This document shows, piece by piece, positions 3,993 through 34,441 of a DNA stretch of 64,000 nt. A model generated the notes under the pieces. That model was not told the origin of the DNA and searched no databases. It worked only from the letters and a program-made list of their open reading frames with translations. Each line of letters starts with the position of its first letter. Position 1 is the first letter of the stretch. The stretch comes from a virus, in the IMG/VR virus record IMGVR_UViG_3300042359_000621; one strand, written 5' to 3'. The position numbers and the translations under genes were made by a program.

Positions 3993-4750
3993 TGCTTCAA
4001 TTCACCTGTGGAAGTTCTTTGGCTTTGGATTTGACCCCGTTTGACGGGGTTGTGATCGGCTATCACTGGCAACCTTTTAATCAAGATGGCACGAAGAACT
4101 CTCTGAATTTCCCTAATAAAATCATCCGAGCGCAGTTTTTATATGGCAACAAACATCACAAACCCTGCCCATTTTCCGGTTGTGATTCAATTATTGAATG
4201 GGTGCATAGAAGGGTTGAGAGATTTCCACAGATCACTGAGTGGGTGTTAGTAAATGAGTGGAGCGATGACCTTGGGGTTCCGTATCCCAACTATTCCCTC
4301 GATAGTTTAAAGCGTTATTGTGAAGCTGCCTATACTGCTAATCCTAGCGCGCGAATAATTTTAGGAGATTTCAGACCACATCTTCTGAATAAATGGCGTG
4401 CGATCGCTAATATCTGCCACGAACTAGCTAAGGATTTTCCGGTAGAAGTTGGGATTCAAACTCACATCAAAAGCTATAACGCTCCCGTTATTTTGGCTCG
4501 TCTCCCTGAAATAATTGGGATGTTTGGCGATATTCCGGTACATTTTATTGAGGCGAGTTTGTGGTATAAGTCGGATCTTGATAAACTCGCCTGTGATTTC
4601 TTATGGAGGGAGTTGGAAGCGATCGCAAATAATCACCAAATCAAATCATTTTGTAATTGGTGGCTGTGTTCTGAGGATGCGGAGGTTGGGCGGCGGATGC
4701 CTACTTTTGAAAACTTGCAGTTATATTCAAGCACTTGGTTGATCAATTAA
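3989..4750 (+). CDS. GH10-like (clan GH-A TIM-barrel) glycoside hydrolase
   Basis: Ordered motifs EWVLVNEW (acid/base NE), ANPSARIILGDF, VEVGIQTHI and VHFIEASLW (nucleophile E) mirror GH10 strands 4-7. Confidence 0.5.
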   Translation: MMLQFTCGSSLALDLTPFDGVVIGYHWQPFNQDGTKNSLNFPNKIIRAQFLYGNKHHKPCPFSGCDSIIEWVHRRVERFPQITEWVLVNEWSDDLGVPYPNYSLDSLKRYCEAAYTANPSARIILGDFRPHLLNKWRAIANICHELAKDFPVEVGIQTHIKSYNAPVILARLPEIIGMFGDIPVHFIEASLWYKSDLDKLACDFLWRELEAIANNHQIKSFCNWWLCSEDAEVGRRMPTFENLQLYSSTWLIN

Positions 4751-6178
4751 ACACATACCATGGGTAGCGTAATATTCTGGTAATTCAGGCTCAATACTAT
4801 AGTCCGACAATTCAATAACCCCATTATTACAAGCTATTATTTTATCTACGCTTGGATATTCTCCTTCTGTCTTATTACCTAGTATTAATACACTGTTTTT
4901 TTGTCCCATTTTAACAATTGAATGTCTCTGTACAATATAATTGTCCATAAAAACACTGTCTAATATATTCATTGATTCAATATCTACCAAGTAAATTCTA
5001 GCGATATTATAATAATCTCCGGTCACTCCATCTATAAATGGTGCATCTCCACCGTTTGCAAGAATAAGTAACTGAGTATCATCTTCTATTAAAAAGGTTT
5101 GAATATTTTTTGACGTGTTACCAGTAGACGAAGGAAATGTGTCAACAAAGTCCCCTGAAATTATATTGGCATTTTCATCAATTACTTGAATAAATAGTGT
5201 GGAAGTAGTACCACCATCTTGTGGCATGGTTTCTGTTAGCCGAGAAAAGTTATATATTAAAATAATTTGACCAGGTTTTTTCTGTATATTAAAATCCATC
5301 AAGCCAACGGCGAAAGCATCGCCAGGAAATTCAGGAAACCCTATTTGAAAACTTCTTAATAATATGGAGTCACTATAAAAAGAATCTTCTGTTTCAATGG
5401 TTGAAATATTGTATATATTTGCTAACACATTTACGATCATATACTTTTTAGTGATATTATCTTCAGGTATCCATTCCCATACAAGATAAATTTCTGTTCT
5501 GATAGCAAGGATATTACCATCATCCAACAATACCTCAAGATGTTTATTGTAAATACCACCATCAACATTTTCGGGAACAAAGCTGCGTGTTGAGTTAAAA
5601 TCTATATCACGGCTTGTAGTAAATTGATAATTGGAATCAAAATATATCAATTTACCTCTTAATGTTTGATATGATTCACCATTTTTTGTATATCTGTTAA
5701 AACCTGAGTTTGGCAACATCAAAAACAATATTGAATTTTGGGAAACAAGATGTGATGTACTCGTTCTATAGGCATAAGAAGTTTGACCATTATCTTCCAA
5801 TCGGACGGGCATAGTAAAACTATCTCCCACTTTTTCAATATTTAATTTTTTTATTTTTAGAAAAATTCCACGCCAAGTAAATTGTTTCACTACACCATTT
5901 TCATCAACTAAGGGTGAATCGTAACATAAAAAGAAATATTCTTTAGACAATTTTATAAAATTTATAGGGTAAAAAAGTTCAGTATAGCCAAACGTATCGT
6001 GCAACCTAGCATCAGGTAAAGGTATTTTTGATTCTATCTTTATTTTTTTGTCACTTGATTGATTTATTATCCTTGTTTCTAAAAAAGTATCTTGCTGCAT
6101 ATAGTTATCAAAAAACAATATGATCCTGTGATACCTTAAAGCTGATGTCTTGAATTTAAAAGCACCATTAATTTTCAT
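4727..6178 (-). CDS. N/I-rich repeat (beta-propeller-like) protein
   Basis: Visibly AT-rich; recurring strand motifs (ILFLML.., IILIYNF.., LLILANGG.., VLILGNK..). Confidence 0.55.
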   Translation of the reverse strand: MKINGAFKFKTSALRYHRIILFFDNYMQQDTFLETRIINQSSDKKIKIESKIPLPDARLHDTFGYTELFYPINFIKLSKEYFFLCYDSPLVDENGVVKQFTWRGIFLKIKKLNIEKVGDSFTMPVRLEDNGQTSYAYRTSTSHLVSQNSILFLMLPNSGFNRYTKNGESYQTLRGKLIYFDSNYQFTTSRDIDFNSTRSFVPENVDGGIYNKHLEVLLDDGNILAIRTEIYLVWEWIPEDNITKKYMIVNVLANIYNISTIETEDSFYSDSILLRSFQIGFPEFPGDAFAVGLMDFNIQKKPGQIILIYNFSRLTETMPQDGGTTSTLFIQVIDENANIISGDFVDTFPSSTGNTSKNIQTFLIEDDTQLLILANGGDAPFIDGVTGDYYNIARIYLVDIESMNILDSVFMDNYIVQRHSIVKMGQKNSVLILGNKTEGEYPSVDKIIACNNGVIELSDYSIEPELPEYYATHGMCLIDQPSA

Positions 6179-7020
6179 ACTACTATTATCTCACTACTGT
6201 CAAAATAGATATATGTTTCTATTGTATCATAAGCTGGAGACAAAAAGATTGGGGCTGTATATCCATGAGCAAAAGCCACTAATGAATCATTGTCTTTGTC
6301 AACAGAAAACAAAAATAATATATTAGCTTTATTGTCATCTCCCCCTACATACTGAACCCCCGTAGATAACTGCATAGACACCCAAGGAGTAAAAGTGGAG
6401 ACTGTGTTAACAACCTGGATATTTGTATAGTCAACCGTAGTAACGGATTTAGTTATAAGTCCAGATAAAAGGTCGCTAGACTTGGTTAATATAATCCCGT
6501 TATCATCTACCACAAACGAAGCTAAAGATTGAGAGGTGACACCAAACCCCGTAAACCAATCAACATCCGAACTAAACCATGTCATGCACTCCCTAGAGAA
6601 GCAGTCCAAAGGGGGAGCCGTGGTAACATTCCGATCTGTTTTATCGTAATTAGAAACGGTTATAATCTCGTTTTGCTCATCTCCAATTCTGAACAAAAAC
6701 AATGACTTTGCTTTATTAATCTTGTTTTTATCTATCTTAACCGAATCATTATAGCCAACATAAACGGGGGATGATTCCGGTCGGGTGTAGGCAAAGGGGT
6801 TCTTAATTGATATTGTCCCTATAGGTGCTTCTAAAAATTCGGCTTCAGTGTTGAGGCATAACCATTCTGAGTTAGTTGTTGAATGAAACATGGGGACAAT
6901 CGTTGATATTCCCAACCCATAACTAGCACTTGAATCCCATTGTTTCTTGGCAACTAACTCCAAAAATTCAATCGTTGGCAGTAGAGAAACCGAGCTAACA
7001 TAATCAGTTGTTGTTGACAT
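6175..7020 (-). CDS. repeat protein, compositionally like 4727..6178
   Basis: 4-nt overlap with downstream gene; motifs SLFLFRIGD / ILFLFSVDKD. Confidence 0.55.
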   Translation of the reverse strand: MSTTTDYVSSVSLLPTIEFLELVAKKQWDSSASYGLGISTIVPMFHSTTNSEWLCLNTEAEFLEAPIGTISIKNPFAYTRPESSPVYVGYNDSVKIDKNKINKAKSLFLFRIGDEQNEIITVSNYDKTDRNVTTAPPLDCFSRECMTWFSSDVDWFTGFGVTSQSLASFVVDDNGIILTKSSDLLSGLITKSVTTVDYTNIQVVNTVSTFTPWVSMQLSTGVQYVGGDDNKANILFLFSVDKDNDSLVAFAHGYTAPIFLSPAYDTIETYIYFDSSEIIVV

Positions 7021-7432: not shown

Positions 7433-7984
7433 ATGATTATACAACAACTTTGTCTGTTTGAAACACAACCATCACTAATTGATTCAAACGAAAATTATAC
7501 CCCATCTGATTTGATTGATTTAGTCCATAAGTTTTATGGATTTCCTGAATTAGACCCTTTTAGCTGTGAACAAGCTAATCAAATTATTAAAGCTCAAAAG
7601 ATATTTACAATTCAAGATGATGGATTTAAACAGAACTGGAGACGGGCTAAAACACTCTGGTTGAACCCTCCCTACAGCGCGGGATTTATTGAGAAGGTTG
7701 TCGATAAATTGATTGCAACATTGAACGAGACTGAAGCGGAAGCATTCTTGTTAACCAATACCGACAACAGTACGGTTTGGTACAAAAAGGCTTTGAATCG
7801 GTGCGATCGCTTCTGCCTACCGTCAACTCGGTTAACTTTTTATTCCCCAAAACGGGCGCAGGATGGGAAGAAACAAAACCAAAACCGATTCTCCCAAACT
7901 CTATTTTATTTTGGATTGCAACCTCAAAGATTTGAGGAAATTTTTGAGGGTTGGGGAACTGTTTGCCAGACTTCCAAATGGTAA
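7433..7984 (+). CDS. phage-type DNA N6-adenine methyltransferase (Dam family)
   Basis: ..TLWLNPPYS.. catalytic motif and ..LLTNTDNSTVWY.. layout typical of small phage Dam MTases. Confidence 0.85.
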   Translation: MIIQQLCLFETQPSLIDSNENYTPSDLIDLVHKFYGFPELDPFSCEQANQIIKAQKIFTIQDDGFKQNWRRAKTLWLNPPYSAGFIEKVVDKLIATLNETEAEAFLLTNTDNSTVWYKKALNRCDRFCLPSTRLTFYSPKRAQDGKKQNQNRFSQTLFYFGLQPQRFEEIFEGWGTVCQTSKW

Positions 7985-8018
7985 AAAATAACCCCTGTAA
8001 ATTAATTTACAGGGGTTT
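7983..8018. terminator. bidirectional terminator (perfect 24-bp palindrome)
   Basis: CCCCTGTAAATT/AATTTACAGGGG (7992-8015) flanked by an A-run and a T-run, between convergent genes. Confidence 0.65.
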
Positions 8019-8042
8019 AAAGTTTTAGCTATTAATCACTGG

Positions 8043-8255
8043 TTATATATCGCCACGACTGACCTCGCGCCGAAGATCCAGGTCTTTATTTAAAACAAAT
8101 ACTCCATCTTGGAGTTCAATCAAATAGCCTGGTTTCAGTGCTTCAAAGATAGATCCTTGACACCGATCTGCTTTTTTATAATCCCCTGTAGACGCTAACT
8201 TGCCTTCCACGAAATTCAGAAAACCATCTTTGTTAAAGATTTTAATATCTCTCAT
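8043..8255 (-). CDS. hypothetical protein
   Basis: ORF in leftward array. Confidence 0.45.
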   Translation of the reverse strand: MRDIKIFNKDGFLNFVEGKLASTGDYKKADRCQGSIFEALKPGYLIELQDGVFVLNKDLDLRREVSRGDI

Positions 8256-21047: not shown

Positions 21048-21087
21048 GTTAATCAGTCAAGAACCAAGGCAATTGTTAACCTGAGTT

Positions 21088-28897: not shown

Positions 28898-29928
28898 TGT
28901 TAACATTTGCAACATTATTTACAGGCGGTGGCGGTGCAGATTTAGGCCTAGAGTCAGCAGGATTTAAGTCTATCTGGGGAGTTGAGCGAGATCCTAAAAT
29001 TGCTAAAGTTGCCCAAGTAAATCTCCCTAATACTAAAATATTTAATTCTTGCGTCGGTGAAATTCGCACTCATCTCATGGAACGGGTTGATTTGCTTTGG
29101 ATGAGTCCCCCATGTCAGCAATATTCAATGGCGCGGCGTGGTGATATTCCCGATCACAAAGACAAAGATGCGGGGTTGTATTGTCGGGACTATATAGCTA
29201 CATTAAACCCTCGATGGGTGGTTCTTGAGAATGTACCAGGATATGCTAAGTCGCCGACATTTGAGGCGATATTGCGATCGCTGATTGATTGCGGATATCG
29301 CTACCATTGGTTAATTCTTGACGCGGCGGATTATGGGGTTCCGCAGAACCGGAAACGATTAATCATGTGGGCAGTCAAAAACTCAGAACCCCTCCCATAT
29401 TTTCCCGAATCAAAGCCTAGAAAGGGATGGTATCAAGCTATTAGTGATTTAATCCCTGAGATGAGTGATTGTGAGCTTGCAGACTGGCAGATTAAGCGAC
29501 TGAATGAATTGGGTTATTTGCCAGAAAAAGCCTTGATTGATATTAGTAAGAATCGACATAAACCAGCTACGGCCAGAGATGGGAACGATCCGAGTTTTAC
29601 CCTATTAACCGATCATAGTGGCTACCATTCACCCGTTTTATTAGTCCCCCGTGCAGGCGCTTGTATCAAAAATATCCTCCCAACCCCCTCGGACAAACCC
29701 TGCCCAACAATTCGAGCTATGAAGGATGTTTCGACCCATTGGGCGGACATTGTAGAGGGAAGTCAAATTAAACGAATTAGTCAAAAAGCGACGGCACGGC
29801 TTCAGACTTTCCCCGACTCCTGTCAATTCCCAGAATCCAAATCTTTAAGCCAACAAATAATAGGAAACGCCGTGCCTCCGTTATTGGCTAAAGAATTAGG
29901 TTTAGCAATCTTAAAATCAATTAACTAA
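28897..29928 (+). CDS. DNA (cytosine-5) methyltransferase
   Basis: Motifs FTGGGG(ADLG), SPPCQQYS, LENVPG, PQNRKRL and GNAVPP in canonical order. Confidence 0.9.
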   Translation: MLTFATLFTGGGGADLGLESAGFKSIWGVERDPKIAKVAQVNLPNTKIFNSCVGEIRTHLMERVDLLWMSPPCQQYSMARRGDIPDHKDKDAGLYCRDYIATLNPRWVVLENVPGYAKSPTFEAILRSLIDCGYRYHWLILDAADYGVPQNRKRLIMWAVKNSEPLPYFPESKPRKGWYQAISDLIPEMSDCELADWQIKRLNELGYLPEKALIDISKNRHKPATARDGNDPSFTLLTDHSGYHSPVLLVPRAGACIKNILPTPSDKPCPTIRAMKDVSTHWADIVEGSQIKRISQKATARLQTFPDSCQFPESKSLSQQIIGNAVPPLLAKELGLAILKSIN

Positions 29929-29930
29929 CC

Positions 29931-30374
29931 ATGAAAACATTAACTAAAGCCAAAACCAAACCCGCTAAAAAAGGATTTCAACCCGCCCAAAAAATTCATG
30001 CCAACGACCTCCACACATTCTCTTGTGAGTGTCTCTGGTATGATGCTGCCACCGACGAGGAACTCCTGACCGAATTGTGGACGATCAAACTCGACAAACG
30101 GCGATTCAGAACAGATGTCCGGCAGGCAATTGTTACGGGGTTGATCTATTGTTTCTTGGAAACCCCCGAAGCAGCAGAGCGACATATTAACCGAGTATTT
30201 TTTTGGAATAATAAATCCCGTGCCTATGAGCCATTAGGGGCAGTGTCTGACGCGCCGATGGACGGATCTAGTCCGGTTGATTTTGAAGCCGATCCGGTGG
30301 TGGCTTATGAGCGATTAAAAGCCCTTTGTGTCGAGATCGAAGTTATCAAGGTTGACGATTGCTTTTGCTCTTGA
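29931..30374 (+). CDS. hypothetical protein
   Basis: ORF in array. Confidence 0.5.
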   Translation: MKTLTKAKTKPAKKGFQPAQKIHANDLHTFSCECLWYDAATDEELLTELWTIKLDKRRFRTDVRQAIVTGLIYCFLETPEAAERHINRVFFWNNKSRAYEPLGAVSDAPMDGSSPVDFEADPVVAYERLKALCVEIEVIKVDDCFCS

Positions 30375-30384
30375 CCTTTTAAAA

Positions 30385-30424
30385 ATACACAAATAAACTT
30401 GTTTTTTTTGCGTTATTTGTGTAT
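30385..30424 (+). repeat. perfect 12-bp inverted repeat ATACACAAATAA / TTATTTGTGTAT with 16-nt loop
   Basis: Arms 30385-30396 and 30413-30424; the right arm overlaps the TATAAT box. Could be a terminator or an IS200/605-like end hairpin. Confidence 0.6.
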
Positions 30425-30427
30425 AAT
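30399..30427 (+). promoter_or_regulatory. promoter TTGTTT, 17 nt, (TGTG)TATAAT
   Basis: Perfect -10 (30422-30427) with extended TG; would start the structured RNA near 30434. Confidence 0.5.
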
Positions 30428-30433
30428 GAAAAC

Positions 30434-30690
30434 AGTCAAGAATCAAGGTTTACCAATGTAGTTTGTTGGTAAATAGTTAACCAGTCTAAGCTCTTTACTG
30501 AGCTACGTTATTGGGAAGTGTTTAAGTTCATACCTTGGGATGCGTTGCCAGTTCCAAGCTCTATAACTAAGTGATTAAACAGATGTACAGCAATTAAGTC
30601 AGTGTCACTTAGATAGTACCGCCCAATAACATTGACGAGGCACACATTACCCGATTTATCGGAGGCTCGAAAGAGTTATTTTTAAATGTC
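30434..30690 (+). ncRNA. IscB-associated omega-RNA / HEARO-like structured RNA (boundaries approximate)
   Basis: ~250-nt non-coding stretch directly 5' of an IscB N-terminus. Long-range pairings: 30507-15/30622-30 (9 bp) and 30567-74/30605-12 (8 bp). Local hairpins: TTTACCAA/TTGGTAAA, CCGAT-tt-ATCGG, CTC-GAAA-GAG. Confidence 0.55.
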
Positions 30691-30910
30691 TAAAGTCTTT
30701 GTGATGGATACCGAAAAGCGTCCATTAAATCCAATCTCACCCGCAAAAGCTAGGATTCTTTTAACTCAAAAGAAAGCCGCAGTTTTTCGGCATCAACCTT
30801 TTACAATCATCCTAAAATATGCTGTCAAATCTTCAACTGAAGACTTGAGGCTAAAGATAGATCCTGGTTCTAAATTTACTGGCATTGCCTTGGTAAACGA
30901 CGACAGTTAA
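30686..30910 (+). pseudogene. iscB: truncated IscB (PLMP domain plus RuvC-I only; RRXRR/HNH/RuvC-II-III missing)
   Basis: MSKVFVMDTEKRPLNPISPAKARILL..PFTIILKY..LKIDPGSKFTGIALV matches the IscB/RRXRR-family N-terminus. Stops after 74 aa and no continuation exists in any frame. Confidence 0.6.
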
Positions 30911-31104
30911 CAATTGTCTTGCTTCTTGACTAATTTGATACTCAAGATGGGATGATCACCCATTATTGTTGATCCAATATCTGACCAATTCCGAGAGGGA
31001 TAGATTTCTTGAGGATGCGATCGCCTCTAGCCTTTCCCTCTCGATTTCCGAAAGCCTTATCCCTATTCGGGTTGAGCAATTTAAAAGTTTTTTCTTTTTA
31101 GGGG

Positions 31105-31133
31105 TTGACATATTTCTATTTTGTTAGTACAGT
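31105..31133 (+). promoter_or_regulatory. promoter TTGACA, 17 nt, TACAGT
   Basis: Read directly; followed by a ~160-nt leader before the ATG at 31297. Confidence 0.4.
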
Positions 31134-31296
31134 TTTAAATGTACAAGATTTTGTATGGCTAGGCTACTGAAGCGAAAATCACCCAAAGAAGTAGCACACA
31201 CAAAGATCGAACTTTGAAAGCGGGGGTGGGCTGGCAGCCGGAAAGACGGCACTTACAAACAGAACAGGGACGCCGCCGTCAAATCGGGCGTAAAAG

Positions 31297-31905
31297 ATGA
31301 AAAACTCCACAACCACTGTCGCTCAACTTTCTAAAAGAATCGCTCAACTAAATAGCTTGATTAGCAAGTTCCCCCGCGTCCGAAGCCTGATTCGGAAGTG
31401 GGCTTTTGAATTGACTATTCTTGAGGGGCGGTTAGAAGCCCTGAAAGCGGTGGCGGTTGTGGAGACACCGAGGCAATTAACAATTTGGGATATGCCACAA
31501 AAAATTGACTGGTTTTTTCCTCCCCTTGTGGGGTCGGAAAAGCAAATTCAGTGGGCGGATAAACTCCGCCGTGATTTTGCTGAATATTATTCTTCTCTGG
31601 GTGGCGAACCTGGAGGTGGCGAAATCAAAATCAAGAAAGCGGTAGGCATTGCAGTTTCAGCCAAGTTCTGGATCGAAAACCGCGATTTTTGCGAAAAAAT
31701 ATCTTGGGAAAATATGACCAAGGTTTTGAGGGAATTGGCTGCCTTGGTTAACGAATGCCAACCTTGGTATAGCGATTCCGATCAGTCGGAATTTAAACAA
31801 ATTCTGAAAGATAAAAAATCAATCCTCAGATTATTGAGGATTGACAAAGCAGGGATCGTCGCCTGTTGCAATCAACAGAGTCAAAACAGACGCTTCAATG
31901 GATAA
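31297..31905 (+). CDS. hypothetical protein
   Basis: 202-aa ORF; contains ..GSEKQIQWADKLR.. but no family assigned. Confidence 0.5.
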   Translation: MKNSTTTVAQLSKRIAQLNSLISKFPRVRSLIRKWAFELTILEGRLEALKAVAVVETPRQLTIWDMPQKIDWFFPPLVGSEKQIQWADKLRRDFAEYYSSLGGEPGGGEIKIKKAVGIAVSAKFWIENRDFCEKISWENMTKVLRELAALVNECQPWYSDSDQSEFKQILKDKKSILRLLRIDKAGIVACCNQQSQNRRFNG

Positions 31906-34240: not shown

Positions 34241-34441
34241 ATGGTAAGACCCCACGAACACAGGCAAGAAATCAAAGCCAGACTCAAACCAGAAGATAGG
34301 GAGAAGTTGAAAGCCCTCGTCGTTGGCATGGGTTATCGTTATTGGAGGCAGGACTCACCGGAACCCGCATGGACTGAGTTTTTGGAGGCGATCGCAACGG
34401 GCGATATAATTCTTTACAAAAAAGTCGGGGGAGGGGGTTGA
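34241..34441 (+). CDS. small protein next to int (possible RHH / directionality factor)
   Basis: ..QEIKARLKPEDREKLKALV.. has a strand-helix pattern; the functional idea rests on position only. Confidence 0.35.
   Translation: MVRPHEHRQEIKARLKPEDREKLKALVVGMGYRYWRQDSPEPAWTEFLEAIATGDIILYKKVGGGG

Follow-up and report, generated by a model that had tools for sequence, protein, structure and literature searches.

In OMEGA systems, named for their obligate mobile element-guided activity, the nuclease IscB and its omega RNA, the latter represented in Rfam by the HEARO family RF02033, normally form the cargo of transposons; one such protein, OgeuIscB, has a 3' NNRR target-adjacent motif (TAM) (PMC9640706). 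CRISPR-associated IscB, which is accompanied by a CRISPR array, a cluster of regularly interspaced short palindromic repeats, was described by Altae-Tran et al. 2021, as relayed in PMC11610941, and DelIscB has been reported as well (PMC12660989). The present analysis concerns a shortened iscB gene and its upstream omega RNA in a 64,000-nucleotide stretch of viral DNA, IMG/VR record IMGVR_UViG_3300042359_000621, which is referred to as the window and whose sequence marks it as a relative of the Planktothrix phage PaV-LD. The region is probably what is left, in an inert state, of a CRISPR-associated IscB locus of phages that was truncated only recently; intact copies of this locus are found in nine IMG/VR contigs (L003-L011), hereafter the siblings.

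The locus shares its RNA and protein families with OMEGA IscB, together with the position of the RNA directly upstream of iscB, the PLMP-type N-terminus and RuvC-I of the protein, and a flanking motif, the putative NNRR of the siblings, that equals the OgeuIscB TAM. It differs from OMEGA IscB in that the phage loci lack transposon ends, occur as one copy per genome and occupy a fixed position; moreover, the place of the cis guide is taken by promoter and candidate anti-repeat sequence, and the window copy ends after residue 72.

With CRISPR-associated IscB the siblings have in common an array beside IscB, the lack of adaptation genes, a putative repeat-complementary stretch in the non-coding RNA (ncRNA) and a putative 3' TAM, whereas their carrier is a phage and their spacers match host plasmids; the window, for its part, has neither nuclease nor array. 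DelIscB carries its repeats and spacers upstream of the open reading frame (ORF), in one ncRNA that also contains the anti-repeat (PMC12660989). In the siblings, by contrast, the array lies downstream of iscB behind a leader of its own, while a distinct gene upstream encodes the omega RNA, and a two-RNA guide would therefore be needed. The logic proposed for the siblings is that of type II CRISPR-Cas9, in which a spacer-repeat RNA pairs with a 5' anti-repeat in the scaffold and the flanking motif lies 3'; unlike type II systems, however, they have a 430-aa IscB devoid of a recognition (REC) lobe, a 216-nt HEARO scaffold and no evidence of cas1, cas2 or RNase III. The type V-U2 system of cyanophage vB_AphaS-CL131 (PMC6293099) likewise joins a small nuclease to an array in the absence of adaptation genes, but the effector here is IscB, with RuvC and HNH domains, rather than a TnpB-derived Cas12, and the side of the protospacer-adjacent motif differs. 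No description of the cassette layout seen in the siblings was found in the literature searched.

The truncated locus

The features of the region, in window coordinates, are as follows.

30351..30388, plus strand: degenerate copy of the 36-nt CRISPR repeat, from a pattern match (30351-30375) and alignment to sibling repeats.
30371..30399, plus strand: promoter-like site TTGACC-17-TAAACT, from a consensus scan (9 of 12 positions match).
30385..30424, no strand: perfect 12-bp inverted repeat whose arms (30385-30396 and 30413-30424) are visible in the sequence itself.
30399..30427, plus strand: promoter-like site TTGTTT-17-TATAAT (hexamers at 30399-30404 and 30422-30427), read directly from the sequence.
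30433..30446, plus strand: candidate anti-repeat of 14 nt, able to pair with nt 14-27 of the sibling repeat.
30435..30650, plus strand: complete omega RNA scaffold, from Rfam RF02033.
30686..30910, plus strand: truncated iscB of 74 aa, from Pfam RRXRR (PF14239) and alignment to siblings.
30902..30903, no strand: deletion junction, from alignment to L003 and L005 with both flanks read.
30903..30905, plus strand: the final three nucleotides (ACA) of the lost array's last spacer, equal to L003 6262-6264, directly before the terminal repeat.
30906..30941, plus strand: terminal degenerate CRISPR repeat, with the same sequence as the repeat that closes the L003 and L118 arrays.
30946..30964, plus strand: terminator-like hairpin, from a consensus scan (6 pairs, then a T-rich tail).

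The 74-aa ORF, which the first-pass annotation of this DNA had taken for an IscB N-terminus, indeed aligns to positions 1-70 of the 174-position RRXRR profile PF14239 (E 2.1e-24; 86.8 bits against a cut-off of 25) and is 96% identical to residues 1-74 of the sibling IscBs, which span 428-434 aa. Residues 1-72 are authentic and comprise the PLMP-type N-terminal domain and the RuvC-I motif IDPGS (residues 58-62); codons 73-74 and the stop, which falls inside the CRISPR repeat, are products of the junction. The Arg-rich bridge helix, RuvC-II, HNH, RuvC-III and the TAM-interacting domain are absent from all six frames of the window, and a tblastn search of the window with full-length sibling IscB recovers residues 1-74 only, the next matches having E > 5, which agrees with the earlier statement that no further IscB sequence follows downstream. 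Because IscB parts after residue 72 are lacking, the window holds a gene fragment rather than an IscB.

Relative to L003, its closest sibling, the window is missing bases 4218-6261 (2,044 bp), and with them IscB codons 73-432 and the array except for its terminal degenerate repeat, which has 6 mismatches from the L003/L118 consensus repeat. This is the sole array repeat remaining; together with the one degenerate copy upstream, it represents all that the window retains of an adjacent CRISPR array. A single deletion of about 2.04 kb brought iscB codon 73 up against the final three nucleotides of the last spacer, taking the bridge helix, RuvC-II/III, HNH and TAM-interacting parts along with every functional repeat-spacer unit, and left behind the promoter region, the complete omega RNA, the terminal repeat and the 74-codon ORF. 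The window and L003 are 100% identical over both 30383-30682 (promoter region and RNA) and 30903-31352, with identity falling to 95-99% in adjoining bins and 74-90% further out, and the junction is shared by none of the nine siblings sampled. Since both flanks of the junction match L003 at 100%, the deletion is recent, and the intactness of the RNA is therefore no evidence of retained function; the stump would be intact because there has been too little time for decay. The anatomy of the region, its homology and the recency of the deletion are established on these grounds. The gene earlier described as decayed is thus truncated, by one recent 2-kb deletion rather than by slow decay. More generally, the first-pass annotation correctly recognized a truncated iscB with a complete omega RNA and promoter-like sites, but it overlooked the 36-nt repeat after the ORF (30906-30941) as well as the degenerate copy before the RNA (30351-30388), and with them the lost CRISPR-associated locus.

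The omega RNA scores 126.9 bits with RF02033 (gathering threshold 83; E 1.9e-27) over model positions 1-211 of 211, which bears out the earlier proposal of an omega/HEARO-like RNA upstream of the ORF, and it is the sole Rfam family matched across the 64-kb window. Neither of the two results that the first-pass annotation had named as refuting it, a missing covariance-model match and a peptide that cannot be aligned to IscB N-termini, was thus obtained. The copy is 100% identical to those that adjoin intact IscB in L003 and L005, and each phage record has one HEARO. Self-complementarity, also claimed earlier, is reflected in the fold of the 251-nt RNA (-61.9 kcal/mol against -51.9 +/- 4.3 for shuffled sequences; z -2.3), and the predicted structure includes the small GAAA-capped hairpin before the start codon; in the cmscan alignment, the RNA's own first helix is poorly paired. 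The end of the model (30650) is separated by 35 nt from the start codon (30686) of the RRXRR N-terminus on the same strand, where the sibling counterpart of the ORF is full length.

Upstream of the RNA, the degenerate repeat copy overlaps the stop codon (30372-30374) of the preceding ORF, 29931-30374, and carries the -35 box of the TTGACC-17-TAAACT site. This putative promoter has unchanged hexamers and spacing in all ten aligned phage loci. The second site, TTGTTT-17-TATAAT, had been singled out earlier as a good promoter; it is present in the sequence as described, but the consensus scan does not list it, offering TTGACC-17-TAAACT instead, and its first hexamer matches the consensus at only 3 of 6 positions. 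In the second phage lineage its -10 box reads TACAAT, and a T-run shifts the spacing by +1 nt in L004, L007 and L008 and by +5 nt in L010. A start about 7 nt past TATAAT would coincide with the first base of the omega RNA and would yield an RNA that has no cis guide, while with initiation at the better-conserved TTGACC-TAAACT site the RNA would be longer by about 28 nt. The stump is probably still transcribed, and it probably has no activity of its own because neither nuclease nor spacers remain.

The perfect inverted repeat surrounding the -10 box of the TTGACC-17-TAAACT site exists as first described, but its interpretation as an IS200/605-type end hairpin is not supported. In the cellular genome G037, nine near-identical IscB elements share sequence that begins at HEARO position 1 and extends about 105 nt beyond the stop codon, and have unrelated flanks; with the left boundary at exactly HEARO position 1, the phage inverted repeat lies outside the element. 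In addition, the arms of the second lineage differ at 4 of 12 pairs (2 mismatches and 2 G-T pairs) with no compensating change. A transposon end at this site is accordingly rejected, as the inverted repeat lies beyond that boundary and is not conserved between the two phage lineages.

Several neighboring features accompany the remnant. The degenerate repeat pattern has three matches in the window against 0.03 expected. The third of these (first 25 nt; 21056-21080, minus strand) is isolated in the intergenic gap separating a pair of minus-strand ORFs, with a GC hairpin after it, and may represent either a stray repeat or an operator or promoter motif ancestral to the repeat. Beyond the terminal repeat, a 51-aa ORF with ribbon-helix-helix-like sequence (30956-31111, minus strand) is conserved in L003 and may encode a small regulator. 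The 20-nt last spacer of L003 and L118 is an inverted copy of phage sequence 25 nt past the terminal repeat (window 30966-30980), so that L003 6250-6264 and the equivalent of 30966-30980 form a 15-nt inverted repeat bracketing the terminal repeat of the siblings; the window retains 3 nt of its left arm.

Probable CRISPR-associated IscB in sibling phages

The locus exists in four states, represented by PaV-LD, by G001, by the nine sibling contigs and by the window. PaV-LD, to which the region is 90.7% identical, has no cassette: homology stops at window position 30360, inside the degenerate repeat copy, and resumes at 30965, and an unrelated 106-aa ORF012R occupies the cassette position (L002, PaV-LD 7867-8218). 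G001, the nearest among the virus records searched (complete, 96 kb), keeps the RNA up to the equivalent of window 30602 and then diverges, so that its locus (L001, G001:C1:53522-53737) has kept just the initial ~168 nt of the omega RNA. The locus has thus decayed independently in relatives of the window phage. The nine siblings have it at the identical position, with the same RNA, a complete IscB and a downstream CRISPR array, in the one-strand order degenerate repeat, promoter, omega RNA, iscB, short leader, CRISPR array and degenerate end repeat. In L003 and L005, the two that were scanned, IscB contains RRXRR positions 1-174 and HNH. The catalytic motifs RuvC-I, RuvC-II, HNH and RuvC-III are kept in all six sibling IscBs compared, the parts missing from the window being present in the siblings with the motifs SQELVRFD, EIEH, CHKCN and HWIDAA, and the ratio of nonsynonymous to synonymous changes (pN/pS) is 0.02-0.19 in 10 of 15 pairs and 0.39-0.60 in the other five; together, these observations indicate purifying selection on the intact sibling iscB.

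Sibling arrays consist of 36-nt repeats (L003:5398-5433) and spacers of 20-56 nt, mostly 34-45, and in most siblings a leader of ~98 nt intervenes between iscB and the array. Seven arrays are distinct, six of them with 9-19 repeats (L003 and L118, 13 each; L004/L007, 19; L006/L009/L011, 14 regularly spaced; L008, 11; L010, 9) and the seventh, in L005, reduced to a stump of 3 degenerate repeats beside a retained IscB. Apart from this stump, they hold 8-18 spacers, amounting to 67 unique spacers in all, and the content turns over: L003 and L118 have only the last spacer in common, while L004 and L006 share most of theirs, with the differences concentrated on the iscB side. The degenerate repeat is found at the iscB-distal end. 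This organization fits a leader beside iscB and transcription on the iscB strand.

Whether the association of array and IscB is meaningful bears on an alternative, according to which an ordinary IS200/605-type IscB transposon copy decayed in the phage and the sibling array serves another effector, such as a Cas12-like nuclease. IscB and HEARO elements are indeed abundant in the cellular relatives, with RRXRR matches in 127 of 144 Microcoleaceae genomes, often many per genome, and 12-42 HEARO matches in each of the four genomes checked, and the phage cassette sits between two repeat copies as though it had been inserted into an array. Nevertheless, all nine intact copies occupy a single, fixed position in the phages, and in each the array comes directly after iscB. 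The canonical right end of the cellular elements, about 105 nt past the stop with GC-rich hairpins, is missing from the phage loci, where leader and array stand instead, and neither IS200/IS605-type ends nor multiple copies were observed in them, tnpA having been outside the search. The closest cellular IscBs are 64-68% identical to the phage protein. Conversely, none of 80 cellular IscB loci has an array within flanks of up to 4 kb, and Tandem Repeats Finder detected no arrays with a period of at least 50 nt at such loci; two candidates proposed by a k-mer finder, L036 and L048, proved to be plain tandem repeats. The 36-nt repeat itself is absent from the 144 Microcoleaceae genomes at up to 3 mismatches and is unlike the published I-D and III-B repeats of P. 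agardhii (PMC9398003).

The targets of the array offer a second line of evidence. Seven spacers match Planktothrix agardhii plasmids and two match PaV-LD-like sibling phages; among GenBank phages, only PaV-LD was matched by array spacers. Four spacers from four different arrays (L003, L004/L006, L008 and L010) fall in or beside a CyRepA1-family replication gene on a single P. agardhii plasmid (p1, strain No.66), within 2 kb of one another (NZ_LR882964.1 2918-4839; L145, L157). A 3' NNRR flank, in iscB-strand orientation, adjoins seven of the nine protospacers analyzed, including all six good plasmid matches, although this test and the longest-helix test described below were framed post hoc, after the data had been seen, NNRR itself being the published IscB TAM. 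The spacer with a 100% match to its own genome has the flank CATA, not NNRR. Spacer 2 of L004/L007 has matches in a small gene that is conserved in the phages and located downstream of the integrase gene, at window 34247-34283 (minus strand, 2 mismatches) and at G002 29748-29784 (100%, a self-match), neither site having a 3' NNRR.

The third line of evidence concerns the RNA. The candidate anti-repeat helix consists of 13 Watson-Crick pairs and 1 G-U pair and spans the first 12 nt of the omega RNA; a helix of 14 bp was reached by none of 73 upstream regions of cellular IscB genes, for which the maximum was 13. In the predicted duplexes, repeat nt 1-6 are further paired to 30476-30481, which forms the first scaffold helix's 3' strand, and nt 7-18 to approximately 30452-30463. 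In the former arrangement, by analogy with a normal omega RNA guide, the spacer would sit directly 5' of the helix. It has been noted that the repeat:anti-repeat duplex of Cas9 is equated with the guide adaptor hairpin of IscB (PMC9640706). An anti-repeat at the 5' end of the omega RNA is considered likely. Duplex energy was also tried as a test and set aside in favor of the longest helix, for it separates the pairing from shuffled repeats (z ~-3) yet does not discriminate against cellular HEARO regions. In L008, the omega RNA carries, ~240 nt upstream of iscB (start 1855), a 13-14-nt insertion that equals nt 1-14 of the CRISPR repeat of this phage, which suggests that the repeat has recombined with the part of the RNA homologous to it.

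Taken together, these properties are consistent with a mechanism in which sibling array transcripts, each spacer followed by its repeat, would use the repeat portion to base-pair with the omega RNA at its 5' domain; the omega RNA would act like a trans-activating CRISPR RNA (tracrRNA), and IscB would cut DNA in which a matching protospacer is followed by NNRR. The targets so far recognized among siblings would mostly be P. agardhii plasmids.

Several points weigh against this reading of the locus. What ties the array to IscB in the siblings is their adjacency, a single 14-bp helix, nine protospacers and the negative outcome of searches, and both the transcription of the window stump and its inertness are inferences. 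The energy of the repeat:omega RNA duplex, -23.8, compares with -20.0 +/- 2.3 for cellular HEARO and -24.9 for the best control. Spacers would have to be acquired without cas1 and cas2, Cas1 not having been found in the four phage records searched (G001-G003 and PaV-LD). The 5' flanks of the protospacers are mildly T-rich, with T at -3 in six of nine, which would suit a Cas12-type effector, although the enrichment at -3 and -2 is inconsistent. On the other side, G002 and G003 show spacer turnover and bear arrays, and no Cas12-type domain was found in either record, both of which are only ~80% complete; the 3' NNRR flank and the anti-repeat also fit IscB. A decayed transposon copy beside an array serving another effector is consequently regarded as unlikely, and the lost CRISPR-associated IscB locus is preferred.

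Fate of the orphan omega RNA and significance of the cassette

An omega RNA left without its nuclease could in principle still be employed in trans, having been loaded by the IscB of the host, as suggested in the first-pass annotation, or by that of a co-infecting sibling phage. The RNA of the window is complete and identical to copies that look functional, both promoter-like sites are intact, and freshwater metagenomes contain sibling phages whose IscB is complete. Omega RNAs that stand alone are known, moreover, and an interaction between them and OMEGA systems has been proposed (PMC11610941). Cellular examples reported by Altae-Tran et al. 2021, according to PMC11610941, resemble the window in having no intact iscB adjoining, but the orphan described here differs in being a fresh deletion product identical to sibling copies, with no partner nuclease found in the presumed host.

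The presumed host genome, G124, contains a 379-nt stretch 100% identical to a P. agardhii plasmid and would on that basis be a representative of this species. It has no RRXRR match anywhere and no match to the phage IscB, so that a host IscB partner for the orphan RNA is unlikely, and the idea of loading by a host protein is not supported. The genome does have two HEARO matches over the cut-off, at 130.6 and 106 bits (L143, G124:C1:2787006-2787247, and G124:C1:319403-319692); the one examined, L143, has no adjoining iscB, and by sequence these appear to be orphan omega RNAs within the presumed host.

Nor do guide-like targets point to use in trans. The 16 nt in the cis-guide position (30419-30434) overlap the -10 box and part of the candidate anti-repeat. 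A host match to these nucleotides at the 5' end of the RNA, for which a search had been suggested, was not obtained in five Planktothrix-like genomes at up to 1 mismatch, nor were any targets present in PaV-LD at up to 3 mismatches; in G001-G003, only the guide locus itself and chance-level 3-mismatch matches were recovered, and the window yielded nothing but its own locus. The possibility of a homing-type target in PaV-LD, which lacks the cassette, was rejected, as homology ends before the guide. The closest cellular IscBs are only ~65% identical to the phage protein, a co-infecting sibling would supply its own identical RNA, to which the orphan adds nothing, and the recency of the deletion accounts for the 100% identity. 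Continued use of the orphan RNA in trans is thus very improbable. A more specific version, in which the RNA is made during infection and acts with a co-infecting IscB-bearing sibling as an extra tracr-like scaffold or as a decoy for IscB and its CRISPR RNAs (crRNAs), is likewise very improbable; if true, a phage without the weapon would blunt or borrow the weapon of its relatives.

With the freshly truncated, inert remnant as the preferred explanation, the stump itself is a dead gene whose value is that of a pointer and a natural knock-out. It belongs to an allelic series that comprises the window (no IscB), L005 (IscB with an array stump), G001 (half the RNA) and PaV-LD (no cassette). What it points to is a gain-and-loss cassette in PaV-LD-like phages of bloom-forming Planktothrix, made up of IscB, a CRISPR array of its own and a separate omega RNA that may be tracrRNA-like, a layout intermediate between transposon OMEGA systems and type II CRISPR-Cas9. 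If the two-RNA reading is true, the cassette would represent an extant instance of the transition between one omega RNA and a crRNA with its tracrRNA, as well as a case of a phage using RNA-guided cleavage against the plasmids of its host.

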